30,059 nt of DNA. Origin: an uncultured virus (IMG/VR IMGVR_UViG_3300022555_000029). Its lineage: Duplodnaviria; Heunggongvirae; Uroviricota; Caudoviricetes. A model generated the notes under the pieces. That model was not told the DNA's origin, ran no database searches, and saw only the letters and a program-made list of their open reading frames with translations. Numbering within the stretch: position 1 is the first letter of the stretch; every line of letters begins with the position of its first letter. This document shows, in pieces, positions 2,259-25,275 of this stretch. Location of the stretch: the IMG/VR virus record IMGVR_UViG_3300022555_000029. One strand, given 5' to 3'. The position numbers and the translations under genes are program-made.

Positions 2259-3587
2259 ATGGCAATTCAAAGGTATGCTGGTGATAGGATAACGTGTTTA
2301 TCCACGCCAGATGTAAAACCGTTGAATGTAGCCGATGGTGCATTCCTTGTAGAAACCGATACTGGAAAACTATTCCAAAAAGTAGGCGGTGCGTGGGAGC
2401 AGATTGAGGGCTACAGCGGAGCATCAGGTTATTCTGGTTTCTCTGGTATTAGCGGTTACTCAGGCGCTAGTGGAATAAGTGGATATTCAGGCGCTAGTGG
2501 CATAAGCGGATATTCAGGAGAAAGTGGAGAATCAGGTTATTCGGGAGAGAGTGGATATAGTGGTGCTTCAGCAGCTAGCGGATACTCAGGTGCTAGTGGC
2601 GAATCTGGATATTCAGGAGAATCAGGCGAAAGTGGGTATAGTGGAGTAAGTGGTGAGTCTGGATATTCAGGAGAAGCTGGTCCTGTAGGTCCTACTGGTG
2701 GTATCTCAATGCCGTATAATTATAATGATACGACATCAGCTCCACCTGCAACTGGTACTGTTCGTCTGAACCATGCTACACTTGCTTCTGCAACTGTGTT
2801 ATGGGCTAACGATACTGATTCTGGTTCTGTCAATGTCCAAATATTGTTAGACGACATATTACCTGGAGACCACGTTAGAATTCAGAAAGTAGGTGCACTA
2901 ACTAATTATGCTTACTATCACGTAGATTCAAATGTTGATAGTGGGGCATATCATACTATTGGTGTTACCTATGTAAGCGGTAGCGGTTCATTAACTACTG
3001 GTGATGCAATAGAGATGGTAGCTTCGCAAAGAGGTCCCGAAGGTGTAAGTGGATATTCAGGCGAATCTGGAATTTCTGGGTATAGTGGTGCATCAGGTGC
3101 TAGTGGAATAAGTGGCTATAGCGGAGCTTCAGGTATAAGCGGTTTCTCTGGTGCATCAGGTACTTCAGGGTTTAGTGGTGCCAGTGGGGAATCAGGTTAT
3201 AGTGGCGAATCGGGAGCATCTGGTTATTCAGGAGAAAGTGGTACCTCTGGTTACAGCGGTGCTAGTGGCGAGTCTGGGTATAGCGGTGCGTCTGGTACTT
3301 CTGGATACTCTGGTATGTCTGGTGCTGGTGTTCAGTACTGGGACAGAGGGGATGCTGTAGGATACAGTGGGGCAGCTAAAAGAATGACTCCTACAAACAC
3401 AGGAGATTTAGTTGACCTAGACGTTTCACCTTTACAGCAGGCGGTTCAGACAGCTCCAGGAACACCCGCAGCAGACGCAATGAGAATGTATGTAGTCGCT
3501 ACTGGAACAACTCCGAATAGGATTGTTAAGTGGTGTATTAAAGATGAAACTGGTAATGAAATAGTGGTAACAAGCGTTGTAGTATAA
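2259..3587 (+). CDS. Collagen-like (Gly-X-Ser)n fibre protein, probably on the virion surface
   Basis: Two runs of 32 triplets are separated by a globular domain of about 110 aa. The N-terminal ~48 aa resemble those of 3682..5235. RBS AAGGAGG. Confidence 0.8.
   Translation: MAIQRYAGDRITCLSTPDVKPLNVADGAFLVETDTGKLFQKVGGAWEQIEGYSGASGYSGFSGISGYSGASGISGYSGASGISGYSGESGESGYSGESGYSGASAASGYSGASGESGYSGESGESGYSGVSGESGYSGEAGPVGPTGGISMPYNYNDTTSAPPATGTVRLNHATLASATVLWANDTDSGSVNVQILLDDILPGDHVRIQKVGALTNYAYYHVDSNVDSGAYHTIGVTYVSGSGSLTTGDAIEMVASQRGPEGVSGYSGESGISGYSGASGASGISGYSGASGISGFSGASGTSGFSGASGESGYSGESGASGYSGESGTSGYSGASGESGYSGASGTSGYSGMSGAGVQYWDRGDAVGYSGAAKRMTPTNTGDLVDLDVSPLQQAVQTAPGTPAADAMRMYVVATGTTPNRIVKWCIKDETGNEIVVTSVVV
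2409..2696 (+). repeat. Gly-X-Ser triplet repeat, block 1 (32 triplets, one Gly->Ala interruption, ends GEA-GPV-GPT)
   Basis: Counted from the translation. It has a 9-nt period with mixed Ser codons (TCA/TCT/AGT/AGC). Confidence 0.95.
3033..3320 (+). repeat. Gly-X-Ser triplet repeat, block 2 (32 triplets, begins GPE)
   Basis: Counted from the translation. Confidence 0.95.
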
Positions 3588-3681: not shown

Positions 3682-5235
3682 ATGTCAATCCAATACTTTG
3701 TAGGAAACAAATTAGTAGGTCTTTCAAGTGATAGTAAGCCGACGACTCTTATAGATGGTGCTACTTTCTATGAAATAGATACAGGAAACAGTTATGTCCT
3801 GTCTAGTAGTATCTGGATTCCGATTGGTATGGCTAGGGATGGTTCAGTTAATCCTGTTAATATTACATTTAATGGTAGCTTTGAAGATTGGTCTAATGGT
3901 CCTACTGACCCTCCTGATTATTGGTTTTTCTATACTAATAAGGCTTCTGGTGCTGTAGCCAGAGACGGAGGAGTATTTAGGTTCGGTTCATACTCAACCA
4001 AATTAACCCTAGGAGAAGATGGGGATTGCCTAATTGCTATTAACTATGAAACTGATATAGCTTATTGGCAAGGTAGGAAGATGACATTTGGTTGTTGGGT
4101 CTGGTGTGATGTGGCAGACTCTGCTGTATTAGGTATTTACGACCAAGTATCAGGGTCTGAATCTTCAAGACATACTGGCAGTGGAACCTGGGAATGGCTA
4201 TCATTTACTTATACTGTAAATGTAGCAGCTACTAGATTAGATTTCTACTGCAACATTTATAAGACTGGCTCTGCTTATTTTGATGGAGCTATGATAGTTG
4301 AAGGAGGAAGTCAATTTGCTTTCTCTGAAAGACCTATGTATCAAGCAGATATTGATACAGCTGTTGGCAATAAGGTTCTAGGCGATGGTTCAGTTAATCC
4401 TACTAATTTAGTGCTTAATGGTGACTTTGAAAATTGGTCTGCTGGAACATCAGTTGCACCTGATTCTTGGAGTTTGTTTGCTAATGACCCTCCAGGCAGT
4501 GTTGCTAAAAATATTTCTGTAGTTAAGATAGGGACTTCTTCAGTAGCTGTAACTTCTGCTGGAGTTCATACTGCTTTGGGACAGGGGATTTCTGCTGAAA
4601 AAGGCACCGCTTACTGGCAAGGAAGAACACTAACTTTTAGTTGTTGGGTATGGTGTAATGCTCCTGGTGTAGCTGGATTGATGCTTAATGATGATACCAC
4701 AGATTTCTGGTCAACTAAACACACAGGGGATTCTACTTGGCAATTATTAACAGTAACTGGTGCTATGGGACCTGCTGCTACAGGAGTACAAGTACAATTA
4801 GCGGTAGGGGAAGGTGCAATTGCTTATTTTGATGGTGCAATGCTAGTGGAAGGTGCATCTACTTTTGCATTTGCAGATAAGCCAGCATCCGAAGCAACCG
4901 TAGTTGATTACTTTGCAACTTCTACTATAGTTGGATGGGCAGCAAGCCCGACTGGAAATATCTACATTAAGAAAATAGGGGATATTGTTTTTGTTAATTA
5001 TTACATAACTGGTACAAGTAATGCAGCCACAACTTCATTTACTGTTCCATATACGATAAGTGGAAATGCTTATAATGGTTCATTAAATACAACTGCAGGA
5101 GGGGGTATCGGTATTTGTATTGCTGGTAATGGAACAAGTATCATCAGTTTTCCTGGACCAGCTTGGGGAGATACTACTTGGGCAGATACAGGAACTAAAA
5201 TAGTACAAGGACAGATTTTCTTTAAAGTTGTATAA
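3682..5235 (+). CDS. Virion surface protein with two tandem carbohydrate-binding-like (CBM4/9-type) domains
   Basis: Internal 182-aa duplication: NGxFExWS, AYWQGRxxTFxCWVWC, HTGxxTW, AYFDGAMxVEG. An identical 18-mer GATGGTTCAGTTAATCCT lies at 3838 and 4384. Confidence 0.7.
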   Translation: MSIQYFVGNKLVGLSSDSKPTTLIDGATFYEIDTGNSYVLSSSIWIPIGMARDGSVNPVNITFNGSFEDWSNGPTDPPDYWFFYTNKASGAVARDGGVFRFGSYSTKLTLGEDGDCLIAINYETDIAYWQGRKMTFGCWVWCDVADSAVLGIYDQVSGSESSRHTGSGTWEWLSFTYTVNVAATRLDFYCNIYKTGSAYFDGAMIVEGGSQFAFSERPMYQADIDTAVGNKVLGDGSVNPTNLVLNGDFENWSAGTSVAPDSWSLFANDPPGSVAKNISVVKIGTSSVAVTSAGVHTALGQGISAEKGTAYWQGRTLTFSCWVWCNAPGVAGLMLNDDTTDFWSTKHTGDSTWQLLTVTGAMGPAATGVQVQLAVGEGAIAYFDGAMLVEGASTFAFADKPASEATVVDYFATSTIVGWAASPTGNIYIKKIGDIVFVNYYITGTSNAATTSFTVPYTISGNAYNGSLNTTAGGGIGICIAGNGTSIISFPGPAWGDTTWADTGTKIVQGQIFFKVV

Positions 5236-5247
5236 GGAGATTAAGTT

Positions 5248-5685
5248 ATGTTAGAATTAATTAATGCCGTTAGTAAGAGGTTAGATTCAGTCCAGGAGCT
5301 ATTGTCTCTTGGCGAAATTACTAGGTTGTCTAACACAACTTTGAAATCAAAAGATGCTATTCTAACTACTATCTTTGATAAAGATGACTGTCTTGCTGGT
5401 CACGCTATCTATGAAAAGATAGGTGATTCTACTCCATTCCATAGGCACGAAGGTGTTACGCAATATCTCTTGCAGTACAAGGGCAAGATTGCAGTTGATT
5501 TTGAGAATGGTTCTTATCGGGTCGTTGATGTTGGTGGCTGTGTAAAGTTAGAACCAGGTGAGTTACATAGAGTTACTGGATTAACTGAAGGTGCCGAGCA
5601 ATTATTCATCTGTATACCCGCAGAGAAAGGGTACAAAATTGATAAAAACCAGCTATTGAATGAACAAACGGAAATAAAACTATGA
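5248..5685 (+). CDS. Cupin-domain protein
   Basis: TPFHRHEGVTQYLLQYKG...GGCVKLEPGELHRV matches cupin motifs 1 and 2. RBS AAGGAG. Confidence 0.8.
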   Translation: MLELINAVSKRLDSVQELLSLGEITRLSNTTLKSKDAILTTIFDKDDCLAGHAIYEKIGDSTPFHRHEGVTQYLLQYKGKIAVDFENGSYRVVDVGGCVKLEPGELHRVTGLTEGAEQLFICIPAEKGYKIDKNQLLNEQTEIKL

Positions 5686-6056
5686 GTGAGATTACTAAGG
5701 AAGAGTTATTAGCAATGATTGATGTACAGGCTAAAGCTGCTACGGCTATGGAGAGTATTGCAAATTCCAATAGGCAGATTAGTGAGCAGAATAAAGAGAC
5801 TGTTAAGAATCAAGCCGAATTAATTAAAACATTATCTGATGAGAGAGAAAAATGTACTGCTAACATTTGTATTGTACTTGAAAAGGGATTAAAAGCAGCT
5901 CTTACCGCAGCAAGTCCTAATACTACGGTTATTGATACGATTGCTAAGGATACGTCCTGGATTAAGGTTATATTTGGTTCAATTGCTTTTATAGTAGCTA
6001 TAGTTGGTGGCATAATGGCTTTTACACACCACTTAGCTACCTTGGGGGTTAAATAA
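5682..6056 (+). CDS. Coiled-coil protein with a C-terminal transmembrane helix
   Basis: ATGA overlap with the previous gene. Hydrophobic segment WIKVIFGSIAFIVAIVGGIMAF. Confidence 0.7.
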   Translation: MSEITKEELLAMIDVQAKAATAMESIANSNRQISEQNKETVKNQAELIKTLSDEREKCTANICIVLEKGLKAALTAASPNTTVIDTIAKDTSWIKVIFGSIAFIVAIVGGIMAFTHHLATLGVK

Positions 6057-6433
6057 TGCACATCATAGGAGGAACTGTGGCTGGACTAAGTACGGTTCAA
6101 GACTTGACACCTGTATATCTAAAGACTACAGGGGTGTTAACTGGAGTAGAAACTGTTATAAACAACTACACAGTACCAGCTTCCAAGACTTTTCACTTAC
6201 AAAGCGTTATTGCTTCTGGTTCTTCTGATGGTGAATTTAAGTTGTATATTAATGGAGTTCAGAAGTTATATGGTAGAACTTCTTCTTCTGAAAGAGAAAG
6301 CCAGAGAGTATTTGGCGGTGCGGTAGGTATTAAGTGTGTAGCTGGCGATGCTATAGTATTAAAAGTAACTCATTACGAAACTACAGCTCAAGAGTTTGAG
6401 TCTACCTTGGCTGGGTTTCTTAACGTAGTATAA
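6056..6433 (+). CDS. Hypothetical small beta-rich protein, probably structural
   Basis: TAATG coupling, beta-strand-like composition and position in the late operon. Confidence 0.65.
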   Translation: MHIIGGTVAGLSTVQDLTPVYLKTTGVLTGVETVINNYTVPASKTFHLQSVIASGSSDGEFKLYINGVQKLYGRTSSSERESQRVFGGAVGIKCVAGDAIVLKVTHYETTAQEFESTLAGFLNVV

Positions 6434-6443
6434 GGAGAAATAA

Positions 6444-6767
6444 ATGTCTGATTACAAATCTCCATTACCAGTAAAGACTAATCCAGGTGATACAGTAGCT
6501 GCTGAAGTTACAGGTGTATCTACTGGTGACTTTTCTCCGCAAGGAGATAGTGACTTAGCTCTAGGCGAGAAAGCACCTTTAAAGCTTGATGGGGCTGGAA
6601 ACTTAATTACTCGTAGTACTGTGCTTACTGATGAAGGAGCAAACTTTAATGGTTGTGTTTGTCCATATACCGCAGAAGAACCATTGCTTGTGATAGTTGA
6701 TGATGGTATTACATCAGAGCAAGATGCTTTGATAGATACATTAGTGGCAAATGAGCCGTCAATATAA
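6444..6767 (+). CDS. Hypothetical acidic protein
   Basis: RBS AAGGAG and tight packing with neighbours. Confidence 0.6.
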   Translation: MSDYKSPLPVKTNPGDTVAAEVTGVSTGDFSPQGDSDLALGEKAPLKLDGAGNLITRSTVLTDEGANFNGCVCPYTAEEPLLVIVDDGITSEQDALIDTLVANEPSI

Positions 6768-6777
6768 GGAGTAATCT

Positions 6778-7905
6778 ATGCAACAGTTTACCGTTGGTTC
6801 AACAGCAACTTTTTATTGTACATTTGCGAGATTAGATGGAAGTGCTGTAGACCCAGTAACGCCTACAGTTGAAGTATGGCTGAGTGATTCTTTGATAGTA
6901 TCGGCTGTGCCAATGGTAAAGATATCTGTAGGTTACTACTACGCTACATGGACTGTGCCAGGTGCCCAGCCTACTGGAACTTATTCTGCTCTTTATAAAG
7001 GTACAATTGATGGAATAGTTTGTCAAGCCTCAGAAGATTTTGAATTAACTGTTGCTGGTGGTGGGGTAATGCCCATCTCAGGTTACTATTGTACATGGGA
7101 TGATGTGAAGGCTTGTCTATTAGGTTTAGATATAGGTGACATACCAGATACTTTACAGACTAGGATGACTTCATTTTACATACCTACTTTGAAAAGGGAG
7201 ATTGACCAATATTGTAGACAGAACTTTGACAAAACGACTATAACAGAATTTTATAATGGTTCAACTACAGAAGTAATTGCTGGCTTAAGAAGGCCTATTA
7301 AAAATCTTTTCTATTGTGTACTCAGAGTTATACCTTCAATTTCTTGGTATACTTTTAGAAGATGGCGTAATATTAATGTAATTGAATCTACAGGAGTAAC
7401 TGTAGCCTATCAAGGTGGACCTGAACCTGATGATGAAACGATACAACCACCGTATCCAGATTTAGATGGATATTCAGGAACAAGTGGATTTAGTGGTGTT
7501 GGTTATACGTGGGAAAGTGATATTACTAAAGCAGATTTATTTGTAGATTGTTCAAATGGAATTTTAACTATACCTCCAAGAATACTTTATTTGGAGATGC
7601 AAGCAATTCCTTTTTGGAACTATACATTCTTAAGAGGCAACAACAATGTAGAAATTCAATATGAGTATGGTTATGAAGATAATAACTTTCCTAATGACCT
7701 ACGCTTAGCTGCTGCAAAATTAGTAGCGTGCCAAGTACTTTTAATCAAGAGCATCATTCAATCAGGTGGCGGTACTAATTCAATAGCAATAGATGGAGTA
7801 TCGAGAAGCTTTGGTGGAGGAACTCCTTATTCTGCTTTGATTACTGATTTTAGAACACAGGCTTATGCAACTTTAGATAGGTATAGAAGGATAAAGGTAA
7901 GCTAA
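6778..7905 (+). CDS. Head-tail adaptor/connector with an N-terminal Ig-like domain
   Basis: YCTWDDVK...REIDQYCRQNF...EFYNGS and VEIQYEYGY...PNDLRLAAAKLVA are typical of gp6/gp15-like adaptors. It is the first gene of the neck module. Confidence 0.7.
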   Translation: MQQFTVGSTATFYCTFARLDGSAVDPVTPTVEVWLSDSLIVSAVPMVKISVGYYYATWTVPGAQPTGTYSALYKGTIDGIVCQASEDFELTVAGGGVMPISGYYCTWDDVKACLLGLDIGDIPDTLQTRMTSFYIPTLKREIDQYCRQNFDKTTITEFYNGSTTEVIAGLRRPIKNLFYCVLRVIPSISWYTFRRWRNINVIESTGVTVAYQGGPEPDDETIQPPYPDLDGYSGTSGFSGVGYTWESDITKADLFVDCSNGILTIPPRILYLEMQAIPFWNYTFLRGNNNVEIQYEYGYEDNNFPNDLRLAAAKLVACQVLLIKSIIQSGGGTNSIAIDGVSRSFGGGTPYSALITDFRTQAYATLDRYRRIKVS

Positions 7906-8159
7906 TGACATTAGTTGATAAAATAGATTTTCAGGGCGATGATTTACTTATACATTATCATATCAAGGGTGATAGTGATAAGCAAATAAGAAGTCGTGTA
8001 ATGATTATCAATTGGCGTGAAAATACTGACCTACAGGACCTTCTTAAAAAGATGTTTAAGATGGTAGTTAATAAGTATATGAATGAAGATGAAATCAAGA
8101 TAGACTGGGAAAGATTCTTTGCAGATTTTAAGGCATACGAAGAAAGGTATAAAAAATGA
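7905..8159 (+). CDS. Hypothetical protein
   Basis: Translationally coupled at both ends (TAATG, ATGA). Confidence 0.65.
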   Translation: MTLVDKIDFQGDDLLIHYHIKGDSDKQIRSRVMIINWRENTDLQDLLKKMFKMVVNKYMNEDEIKIDWERFFADFKAYEERYKK

Positions 8160-22318: not shown

Positions 22319-24127
22319 ATGGCAAAATGTCCCGTATGTTATACAGTCCTTAACGCAGGTACATCAGGGTGGACAGATGACCCTATCAAAACTCCACGTC
22401 ATAGAATTAGTAATCTTCGGGGAACAACTTCTATAAGAGCAAAACATATTTTAGAACTACAGCAAAAGGTTAATGGATATGAGGCTGAGTTTTCTACTTA
22501 TCCTGGATTCAAAGGGATAACCAATTGGACTCAAATACAAGCTAGAAAATATTCTATAAGACCACAATATATCAATCAATTAAGGCAGGCAATTGAAGGG
22601 TTTTTAGGGTATGTAGGTTATAGTTTATCTGATTACCTGAGTCAGGATTTGAATGGTGAACCTACAAGGGGTATATCTGGATGGACTGATGGAAATAGGT
22701 TATCAAGCAAAATAAACTCAAGAGCCATACACATTGAAGAAGTAAGACTGCCTTTCAATATCCCTGATTTGATTGTTACAGATATTACTATAACTAATCA
22801 AGGAGTTGTAGGTGGTCGTGGTGTTTATGATATTGCTTATACAGTAAAAAATGATGGATATAGGAAAGCACCTATTAATATGGGTAGGTTAGAGCTTGTT
22901 GGAAGTAGCTTTTTTGATTCTGAAATTAGAGCACTAGGACCTGTTGGCAATACTTTAGTTCCTTCATTACCTTCAGAAGTAGTTATTCATACTACTTGGC
23001 ATTATGACCCACTTGGAACACCAGTAGCTTTTCAAATGAAGGCTACTGCTGATATCAACAGTATAGTCAAGGAAATAAAAGAGTCTAACAATAGTTTGAC
23101 TAAAGATTTCTTTGATAGATTACCAATAGGTACTCCAGATTTAATTGTAACTGATATTGTTGTTAATGATTTGGGTATTATTGAAGGTAACGGAACTTAT
23201 GATATTACTTATACAGTAAAAAATATTGGTGGACCTTCCATAGCTTGTAATGGTTTACTTAGAATGGCTATTCAACCAGCCTATATCATCGTGCACGCTC
23301 AAAATCCAGAAGGGAAGGAAATTGAGGCGTGTAGTGGCGGTAGTAATAAAACAGCTGCTTATGAAAATGGTATCTATAAAGGAGTAGCTGATGGTACCAC
23401 TATCTATACCATAGAAGCAGGCACTCGTTCTATTAGAGTTACTTTTAATGGTATGGAGCAGACTAAAGAAATTACTATTGGTGCAGAAGAAACTCAAGCA
23501 GTTATTTTCACTTTTGCACGAGAATCAATTTACAAGGAGGAATTATTTAATTTCTCAGATTCATTTAGTTGGTCAGCTGGTGGGCTTCTGGGTAGACGCA
23601 ATGTTCCTGCTGATAATCCTTATTGGCTTATAGAAGGTTTTGTTGATGGTGGTGACCATTTCCCATATAGCGTTAGCTTTAATCAAAATAGAACTTTTAC
23701 TGTTTCTTCTTATAGTGGAAGTGGGTCGTGTACATATACTTCTTCTGACCCAGCATTTCCTGGTTCGTATGTATGGTTTGGTCGTCAAAGTTCTTTTAGA
23801 GCAAAATCAATTCCAGCTAAAACAACCTTTACTGAATGGTATTGTCAACACGTTGGTAATGGAACTGGGAAAATGGGTTGTAGACTTTGTGGTTCTACTT
23901 ATATGACTACTGGTGATAGTCAGGATATACTTGAACCACTCACAAATACTGATTGGGGAGTTAACTTTGCTGCTAACAAGGCATGGATAGGTTTGGTAAT
24001 TTTTATGCCTTCAGGTGGGATAATGTTTTTTGGTCCAGGTTCTACTATTACTGGAAGTTGGAGTGGTGTAATAGATGCAACTAGATTCAGAATGAGTAAT
24101 GTTCCTTACGCAACAGAGGATGTATAG
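22319..24127 (+). CDS. Tail fibre/receptor-binding protein A: CxxC, three WT...HIxEL-type repeats, CARDB, half-CARDB, PEGA-like domain, tip domain
   Basis: PDLIVTDI...YTVKN occurs twice, but ADxxxxxxExxESNN only once. HAQNPEGKEI...FNG module. Confidence 0.7.
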   Translation: MAKCPVCYTVLNAGTSGWTDDPIKTPRHRISNLRGTTSIRAKHILELQQKVNGYEAEFSTYPGFKGITNWTQIQARKYSIRPQYINQLRQAIEGFLGYVGYSLSDYLSQDLNGEPTRGISGWTDGNRLSSKINSRAIHIEEVRLPFNIPDLIVTDITITNQGVVGGRGVYDIAYTVKNDGYRKAPINMGRLELVGSSFFDSEIRALGPVGNTLVPSLPSEVVIHTTWHYDPLGTPVAFQMKATADINSIVKEIKESNNSLTKDFFDRLPIGTPDLIVTDIVVNDLGIIEGNGTYDITYTVKNIGGPSIACNGLLRMAIQPAYIIVHAQNPEGKEIEACSGGSNKTAAYENGIYKGVADGTTIYTIEAGTRSIRVTFNGMEQTKEITIGAEETQAVIFTFARESIYKEELFNFSDSFSWSAGGLLGRRNVPADNPYWLIEGFVDGGDHFPYSVSFNQNRTFTVSSYSGSGSCTYTSSDPAFPGSYVWFGRQSSFRAKSIPAKTTFTEWYCQHVGNGTGKMGCRLCGSTYMTTGDSQDILEPLTNTDWGVNFAANKAWIGLVIFMPSGGIMFFGPGSTITGSWSGVIDATRFRMSNVPYATEDV

Positions 24128-24144
24128 TATTAAAGGAGTATTAA

Positions 24145-25275
24145 ATGGAAGAAAAAATTTCTTCAATACCGCCTCTTAATTATAATGAAGAAGTAGTTAT
24201 TCATACAACTTGGTATTATGACCCCAGTAGCAAACCTGTAGTTTTTGATTTAGAGGCTATAGCAGATTATGGGAATATGATATTAGAATTAAATGAAAGC
24301 AATAATAATCTGATTAAAAGGTTTACTCTTAAAGAACCAAGGTTAACTCCTTATACTTCACATATTATTATTCACGCCCATAACCCTGAAGGAAAAGAGA
24401 TTGGTGGTATTGCTGGATTTGAAAACTTAGTTTTGGTATATGCTAATAGTATTTTAGTAGGACACGCTGATGGAACTTCAGCTATTATCGTAACTCCTGG
24501 GCATTATTTAATTGAAGCTAAGTTTAATGGTATGACTAAATCTCAGGAAGTAGATTTGGTTGGAACTGATACTGAAATAGTTTTAACATTCACGTTTCCA
24601 AGAGTAGAAGTAAAATTCGATGATGTAATTAACAGCATAGGAAATCAATCTAGTTCAGGTTCGTGTTCTGTAAGTGATTCTGCTCCGCCAACACCTTATA
24701 TTGATAAGTGGGCATATGCCTATTTGGGGTTAGGAACATCTCTTGCTCTCCATATATGGGGTGGTGCACCACCAATAGAAGTCCCCCCACGCCCACCACA
24801 TACTGTAAGTGCTTCAGCTTCAGGAATTGTAGAAATGACTATTTCTAGTTCAGGAATAACATCAAAAGTTACTGGTTCTGGAACTTGTGCTGATTCTAAT
24901 TCACCACCTAATCCAGACCCAGCTTATACTATCGGTATAAATGGGGATGTAGACCATTGGAATGGTAGTTATCCTGTTTATAATGGTACTACTGCAGCAT
25001 TCTATAATCCAGACATTCTAACTTGGTATGTTCAAAAACCAGCAGGAGCACCGACTCCTCCAGTACGAAGAAGTGTTCTTAAAATAGATGGTTCTGAAGT
25101 ACCTGGAAATCCCAACCCGTCACTTGCTACATTGCCAATACAAGCATATTCTGACGCTCCTTGTTATTGGATTACTTGGTATGGAAGAATTATTTATAAA
25201 GATTCCGTAGGAACTCTTTTTTATTATACTGGATATAAATGCTCTTCTGTTCCCTATGCACCAGAGGATATGTAA
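24145..25275 (+). CDS. Receptor-binding-like protein B: C-terminal half of CARDB, PEGA-like domain, a different tip domain
   Basis: Own RBS AAGGAG. Shares EVVIHTTWxYDP, ESNN, HAxNPEGKEI, FNGM, FTF and a terminal VPYAxED with 22319..24127. Confidence 0.7.
   Translation: MEEKISSIPPLNYNEEVVIHTTWYYDPSSKPVVFDLEAIADYGNMILELNESNNNLIKRFTLKEPRLTPYTSHIIIHAHNPEGKEIGGIAGFENLVLVYANSILVGHADGTSAIIVTPGHYLIEAKFNGMTKSQEVDLVGTDTEIVLTFTFPRVEVKFDDVINSIGNQSSSGSCSVSDSAPPTPYIDKWAYAYLGLGTSLALHIWGGAPPIEVPPRPPHTVSASASGIVEMTISSSGITSKVTGSGTCADSNSPPNPDPAYTIGINGDVDHWNGSYPVYNGTTAAFYNPDILTWYVQKPAGAPTPPVRRSVLKIDGSEVPGNPNPSLATLPIQAYSDAPCYWITWYGRIIYKDSVGTLFYYTGYKCSSVPYAPEDM

Follow-up and report, generated by a model that had tools for sequence, protein, structure and literature searches.

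A CARDB domain divided between two adjacent genes as a proposed joint between two receptor-binding fibre proteins of an uncultured tailed phage

The DNA studied here, 30,059 nucleotides of an uncultured virus (IMG/VR record IMGVR_UViG_3300022555_000029; this whole stretch is referred to as the window), represents the structural-gene arm of a tailed phage. It contains two consecutive genes, A and B, and a first-pass annotation had suggested that a CARDB domain is split between them, so that protein B attaches to protein A by completing its immunoglobulin-like (Ig-like) fold. Our comparison of these proteins with their relatives favours this proposal. A and B probably form a branched receptor-binding fibre, one arm each, in which fold complementation of a single CARDB domain holds the arms together, and the proposed docking of B on A through completion of that domain is well supported by comparative evidence. 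We refer to the first half of the divided domain (CARDB2), which lies within A, as the socket, and to the second half, which lies at the extreme N-terminus of B, as the plug (Table 1).

We built a CARDB hidden Markov model (HMM) of 104 positions from 16 intact relatives and two CARDB1 copies. CARDB1, the domain that precedes the socket in A, was complete as had been claimed, since it matched positions 1-103 of this model as well as positions 2-101 of the 101-position Pfam profile PF07705 (A residues 149-262; 35.9 bits, cut-off 22.7), and it is a full-length CARDB domain by Pfam membership. The subfamily profile also recovered the solved CARDB chains 2l0d_A (2.9e-9), 2kl6_A and 3idu_A (both 2.3e-8). 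The socket is joined to CARDB1 by a short linker and opens like it, with 71% DNA identity between the starts of the two domains (22763-22857 and 23135-23229), but then breaks off: its match was confined to HMM positions 1-39 (independent E-value, i-E, 2.8e-6), and a Pfam scan of A did not report it as a separate stretch. The remaining half was found at the start of the next gene, where B residues 4-61 correspond to HMM positions 46-103 (i-E 1.9e-16) and where the DNA at 24189-24267 is 77% identical to that of CARDB1 at 22975-23053. Against positions 53-99 of the Pfam CARDB profile, the plug scored 22.2 bits in a protein search and 24.4 bits in a six-frame search, with the same cut-off of 22.7.

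Socket and plug are thus each a partial CARDB domain, and together they cover one domain without overlap. In the intact relative P0016 the domain reads straight across the cut, and only the loop between the halves is involved. Alignment of A residues 220-411 with B residues 16-163 by BLASTP (E 2e-28) left a single gap of 46 residues in B, opposite the inter-domain linker and the half-domain of A. Our HMM detected a single socket and a single plug in the whole window; because this single pair is present and the same cut recurs in relatives, the split pattern exceeds chance. Gene A ends with a TAG at 24125-24127 and gene B starts with an ATG at 24145, in a different frame from A and 6 nt after an AAGGAG sequence. 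As this sequence lies ahead of the ATG and an in-frame TAA directly precedes it, the half-domain is the true N-terminus of B, with a ribosome-binding site of its own. The AAGGAGTATTAAATG junction is common to the window and to a second metagenomic locus (L004). On each of these points, from the completeness of CARDB1 to the complementary halves and the separate start of B, the first-pass annotation proved accurate.

The cut is conserved in relatives. A profile search of 1.84 billion representatives returned 250 matches, the best 150 of which were classified, and a word-based search with B gave four further full-length proteins (P0002-P0005) with the same domain start point; these begin M-[AES]-[EQ]-[IK]-I-S-[PS]-I-P-P, and their tips then diverge. 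Among the matches listed, plugs were present in six clusters (window B, P0002, P0003, P0004, P0005 and P0014) and sockets in four (window A with P0009, P0010, P0011 and P0083), with P0155, a member of the P0011 cluster, also carrying a socket. Plugs begin at HMM positions 45-47 (residues 3-5) and run to residue 61 in all six clusters. Sockets end at HMM positions 37-40 in window A, P0010 and P0083, and the match in P0011 reaches position 56, into sequence past the socket. Plug and socket were not found together on one protein among the classified proteins. Sixteen proteins among the matches listed instead had one intact CARDB domain followed by PEGA and tip, behind a different, coiled-coil-like N-terminus.

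The proteins found with A differ in what follows the N-terminal anchor. P0010 matches A in architecture, P0011 runs from anchor to socket to PEGA without CARDB1, P0013 passes from the anchor directly into PEGA, and P0012 combines the anchor with an unrelated C-terminus. Since P0011, P0083 and P0155 all possess a socket and lack CARDB1, these proteins retain an isolated fragment of three strands between the anchor and PEGA. Neither A nor B matched any of 50,697 GenBank phage records by tblastn. Scans of IMG/VR with A, the plug alignment and P0013, and of genome contigs with the plug alignment, returned no relative, and a metagenome scan with the plug alignment returned only L004 and L003, a 92-kb contig with an identical copy of the window (the same phage).

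The first-pass annotation had reasoned that decay of the halves in relatives would speak against docking, and had suggested examining conservation of the split together with the ratio of nonsynonymous to synonymous substitutions per site (dN/dS). The reverse of decay was observed, with the same loop cut in the four socket and six plug clusters and the halves conserved best. Across the six plug proteins (15 pairs), the plug itself had a mean pairwise identity of 73%, compared with 47% for PEGA and 19% for the tip. The corresponding values for the four socket proteins (6 pairs) were 70% for the socket, 46% for the anchor, 43% for PEGA and 21% for the tip. Comparison of window B with the B protein of L004 by the NG86 method gave dN 0.29 and dS 1.18 for the plug (dN/dS about 0.25) and dN 0.40 and dS 1.13 for PEGA; these dS values are near saturation, which makes the ratios rough. 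Because dS is near saturation while the plug protein is conserved, selection acts on the protein and not on the DNA. By these alignments, the halves are the most constrained parts of both proteins.

Socket and plug genes also occur together. They are adjacent in both loci that were read directly, the window and L004. In L004 the contig end cuts the gene upstream of the plug protein P0004, but its last 106 residues are identical to P0155 at 104 of 106 positions, and the plug gene follows it after 18 nt. P0010 and P0002 are each recorded on a contig of 14,002 nt, and P0155 and P0014 each on one of 14,064 nt, so the members of each pair presumably share a contig. L005, a syntenic locus that encodes an A-type protein without a socket, contained no CARDB or PEGA match in 16.5 kb.

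Comparison of the relatives showed that the tips are mosaic. P0014 and P0004 match at 59 of the first 60 residues, beyond which they diverge abruptly, and their A-type neighbours are nearly identical. They share the plug and differ behind it; the plug is therefore a constant adaptor before an exchanged cassette. The tip of P0010, which is on a socket arm, is similar to that of P0004, which is on a plug arm, with an identity of 57% (E 1e-156; 415 aligned columns, counting gaps). Because these two proteins have the same tip, both arms are equivalent tip carriers.

We investigated the origin of the split with separate trees of the two halves, which are short and have many open forks (first half, 39 columns and 23 rows; second half, 58 columns and 24 rows). 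In both trees the sockets or plugs grouped in a single clade with CARDB1 and P0016, to the exclusion of the remaining 15 intact domains, with support of 100 and 96 in the Shimodaira-Hasegawa-like approximate likelihood ratio test (SH-aLRT), and in the second-half tree the plugs formed one group (support 92). The congruence of the half-trees indicates a single split event. One ancestral CARDB domain was probably cut once, most simply by a cassette of PEGA, tip, stop codon and ribosome-binding site landing in the loop. Insertion of a tip cassette into CARDB2 had been offered by the first-pass annotation as an alternative that left relics: the insertion is probably how the split arose, but the description of the halves as relics is unsupported, since they are the best conserved parts.

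These observations are consistent with the following model. A would be fixed to the tail tip through its N-terminal anchor and, after CARDB1, would present an incomplete CARDB domain, with a PEGA domain and tip of its own behind it. A profile alignment with 2l0d_A, a solved CARDB chain, suggests that the socket contains about three strands (roughly A-B-C) and the plug about four (roughly C'-E-F-G). B would be made separately, and the plug, its first 61 residues, would supply the missing part, the two chains together rebuilding one Ig-like sandwich. With about three strands in the socket and four in the plug, strand parity and generic Ig-like topology would place both PEGA-tip arms at the same pole of the rebuilt domain, from which they would leave away from the anchor. 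We infer that the halves bind each other, that they do so one-to-one, and that both tips bind host receptors. Plug and socket would form a constant adaptor, with the PEGA-tip cassettes behind them exchanged by recombination. The more specific picture of a portable and evolutionarily stable plug-and-socket, of about three and four strands, in which the arms fork at the distal pole and tip cassettes move freely between them, we would give an even chance.

Several points weigh against rebuilding of a shared domain. The sample is small and wholly metagenomic (four socket and six plug clusters). Adjacency was read in two loci only, and the contig of L004 stops short of the socket itself; the two further pairs are matched by the equal nucleotide size of their contigs alone, and absence of the plug beside a socket-less A-type protein was seen at a single locus, L005. 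Parallel divergence of sockets and plugs may simply reflect shared ancestry. Both halves might also be functional and conserved without forming a common domain, the plug docking elsewhere, for example on CARDB1, on the PEGA domain of A or on the baseplate, and the socket being a truncated spacer to which neighbouring domains or oligomerisation lend stability. High conservation would fit any essential interface, and AlphaFold2 (AF2) monomer models of B alone and of A residues 145-410 gave no usable fold for either half (predicted local distance difference test score, pLDDT, 27-44), but the intact CARDB1, which serves as the control, scored equally low, and for that reason the models lend weight to neither side. 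We nevertheless consider such an arrangement unlikely. It does not explain the exact complementarity of the halves (HMM positions 1-39 and 46-103) in every member, or why both retain the residue pattern of the intact CARDB domain and still score on the intact-domain HMM. Socket and plug genes co-occur, and sockets are found without CARDB1 in P0011, P0083 and P0155, which rules out CARDB1 as a general receptor.

Insertion being the simplest origin, given the congruent half-trees and the intact relatives, the halves could in principle be non-functional scars of a tip cassette inserted in CARDB2, with B reaching the virion in some other way or never. Conservation largely refutes this, since no other segment of these proteins is as conserved as the halves (73% and 70%), and the tips are about 20% identical. 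The plug has a dN/dS of about 0.25 at saturated dS, the cut position is invariant, and between P0014 and P0004 the plug was unchanged while the cassette behind it was swapped, all of which makes non-functional scars very improbable. We assign a similarly slight probability to the half-domain sequences being mainly homology arms for exchange of tip cassettes and not a protein joint. The mosaic breakpoints directly after the plug, the stop, ribosome-binding site and start junction common to the window and L004, and the occurrence of the same tip on either arm would all agree with such a role. Synonymous sites in the plug are near saturation while its protein sequence is conserved, however, and this leaves DNA identity too low for homology arms between these lineages. 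A role as homology arms can coexist with docking, and rebuilding of one CARDB domain from the two halves is the explanation that we prefer.

Table 1. Positions of genes A and B, their domains and the preceding tail gene in the window
Feature	Positions	Strand	Details
Tail protein, 1879 aa	16679-22318		Ends directly before gene A
Gene A	22319-24127	+	602 aa
A anchor, N-terminal	22319-22750	+	aa 1-144; begins MAKCPVCY; directly after tail protein stop
CARDB1, complete	22763-23113	+	A aa 149-265; own HMM 1-103 of 104
Socket (CARDB2, first half)	23135-23269	+	A aa 273-317; own HMM 1-39 only; abuts PEGA
PEGA/transthyretin-like domain of A	23279-23524	+	aa 321-402; own PEGA HMM i-E 2.4e-24
Tip A and TAG stop	23525-24127	+	aa 403-602; variable; ends SNVPYATEDV
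A-B spacer, 17 nt	24128-24144	+	AAGGAG at 24133-24138; in-frame TAA at 24142-24144 before ATG
Gene B	24145-25275	+	376 aa
Plug (CARDB2, second half)	24145-24330	+	B aa 1-62; extreme N-terminus
PEGA/transthyretin-like domain of B	24355-24609	+	aa 71-155; own HMM i-E 1.1e-31; pLDDT 72-86
Tip B and stop	24610-25275	+	aa 156-376; variable; ends SSVPYAPEDM

The anchor of A is kept in eight protein clusters, whether or not a socket is present, and in L005 the anchor protein is likewise placed after a large tail protein. It had no Pfam or PHROG match. In eight anchor proteins C4, C7, H43 and H138 are invariant, as are W18, D20, D21 and P22, and the two cysteines and two histidines could form a Cys2-His2 metal site. 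The PEGA domains of both proteins were modelled well by AF2. The PEGA region of A had weak Pfam matches to PEGA and CarbopepD_reg_2 and a pLDDT of 81-87 in the monomer model. The model of the B domain was similar in VIA-align to 1qmu_A (Z 8.1, root-mean-square deviation, rmsd, 2.0, 74 aligned) and to 5aq0_B (Z 7.8, rmsd 2.1, 76 aligned), and the domains resemble carboxypeptidase D domain II (1qmu_A), a common sandwich fold.

The AF2 monomer of B gave no confident model for tip B, and an Atlas search with it produced no usable lead. Most of the tip modules examined, including ones on cellular-type proteins, end in S-S-[VI]-P-Y and an acidic tail such as A-x-E-D-[MVL]; the two copies of this tip end in the window (24100-24127 and 25248-25275) have 81% DNA identity. 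This shared motif could act as a signal for folding or assembly. The window is also matched by G001, a virus record of 46.6 kb, which across genes A and B differs only by a 2-nt deletion (AGAG to AG) in tip A at 23798-23801. The resulting frameshift ends A at 499 aa and spares everything from the anchor through CARDB1 and socket to PEGA. Either an error in assembly or a variant within the population, with tip A silenced, may account for it.

The PEGA-tip module, with the same IIVHxHNPEG start, was also observed in contigs of metagenome-assembled genomes (L006-L018), mostly of Candidatus Omnitrophota and Planctomycetota. PEGA was matched in 12 of these 13 loci, with open frames of 424-1144 aa, and CARDB, socket and plug in none of the 13. 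Similar PEGA-tip proteins among the profile matches listed have signal-peptide-like N-termini. These cellular-type proteins may be a clue to the host group of the phage, or a sign that phage and cell exchange adhesin modules.

The 1879-aa tail protein upstream of gene A has five F5/8 type C domain matches in Pfam and an fn3 domain, and in its middle carries a run of short repeats that vary around QQDILSDAKIK. A 1199-aa protein of L005 has the same C-terminal third; L005 is a related phage of 97.9 kb in which two proteins of the tail module (2422-3408 and 4401-8000) contain very long Ser-rich runs broken by Cys, Arg or Lys. At the other end of the window, 5' of the putative head genes, are a methyltransferase-glycosyltransferase fusion (82-1770), a collagen-repeat fibre protein (2259-3587) and a CBM_4_9-domain protein (3682-5235).

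If the proposed joint is real, it would be compact and recognisable from sequence, at about 45 plus 61 residues, and would carry two receptor-binding tips on one anchor, either of which could be swapped. It would provide an annotation rule for second fibre proteins in uncultured phages, namely an N-terminal half-domain that matches a truncated domain upstream, and would extend the known solutions to fibre branching beyond T4gp10-like domains. The natural split-domain pair might also serve as a two-piece docking tag or module for phages or proteins. In our literature searches we met no account of a CARDB joint split in this way, no work on strand complementation in receptor-binding proteins of phage tails, nothing on a split domain among the listed work on CARDB in phage tail fibres, and nothing on phage fibres among that listed on donor-strand or fold complementation (subscription journals were outside coverage).

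In chaperone-usher pili, an incomplete Ig-like fold is completed by one donated strand; these pili need a periplasmic chaperone and an usher, and they polymerise. The first-pass annotation had drawn an analogy with this donor-strand mechanism, which is a loose one. The idea of an incomplete Ig-like fold completed by a second polypeptide carries over to the joint proposed here. The rest does not, as several strands lie on each side (HMM positions 1-39 and 46-103) and about three and about four strands would meet one-to-one, unlike the single, polymerising strand of pili. No chaperone or usher family was found among the window proteins scanned with Pfam, and in these features A and B do not fit a donor-strand system of that kind.

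Phage systems offer nearer comparisons. In the Klebsiella and Escherichia podophages KP32, K11, KP34, K1-5 and G7C, a first receptor-binding protein (RBP1) has an anchor and a T4gp10-like branching domain, and a second (RBP2) has a conserved N-terminal docking peptide (PMC13352976). The arrangement of A and B is similar in its RBP1-like anchor with a docking site, its adjoining RBP2-like gene and its exchangeable distal parts, and B resembles a second receptor-binding protein of this type in having a conserved N-terminal element (73%, compared with 19% in the tip), a variable distal part and an adjacent gene. It differs in the joint itself. A T4gp10-like (XD2/XD3) domain was not found in A, whose residues 149-402 are filled by CARDB1, socket and PEGA, and Pfam and PHROG scans of A gave no other family; here the docking site would be one half of a CARDB domain and the docking element the other half.

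In the solved lateral tail fibre of DT57C, strands of LtfA augment the beta-sheets of LtfC (PMC10713586). Attachment of a fibre through an inter-chain beta-sheet is also what we propose, but in the DT57C structure as described one or two strands extend the edge of a domain that is already complete, whereas here the domain is split between two genes. Of the systems compared, the baseplate tripod of the Lactococcus phage Tuc2009 is the closest. There, a 25-residue C-terminal beta-hairpin of BppU completes the sheet of BppA domain 2, which gives a titin-like composite domain (PMC4742702). There too, as proposed for B, a composite Ig-like sandwich of two chains holds an accessory adhesion protein on a protein of the baseplate; the likeness is drawn from the description of that structure and not from sequence relatedness. 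In Tuc2009 a hairpin is added to a small, near-complete domain, whereas the CARDB domain here, which has intact paralogues, is cut about 40/60, with each piece bearing its own PEGA-tip arm. The proposed split-CARDB joint would be a variation on known inter-chain fibre joints, with BppU-BppA of Tuc2009 and the fibre of DT57C as partial precedents.

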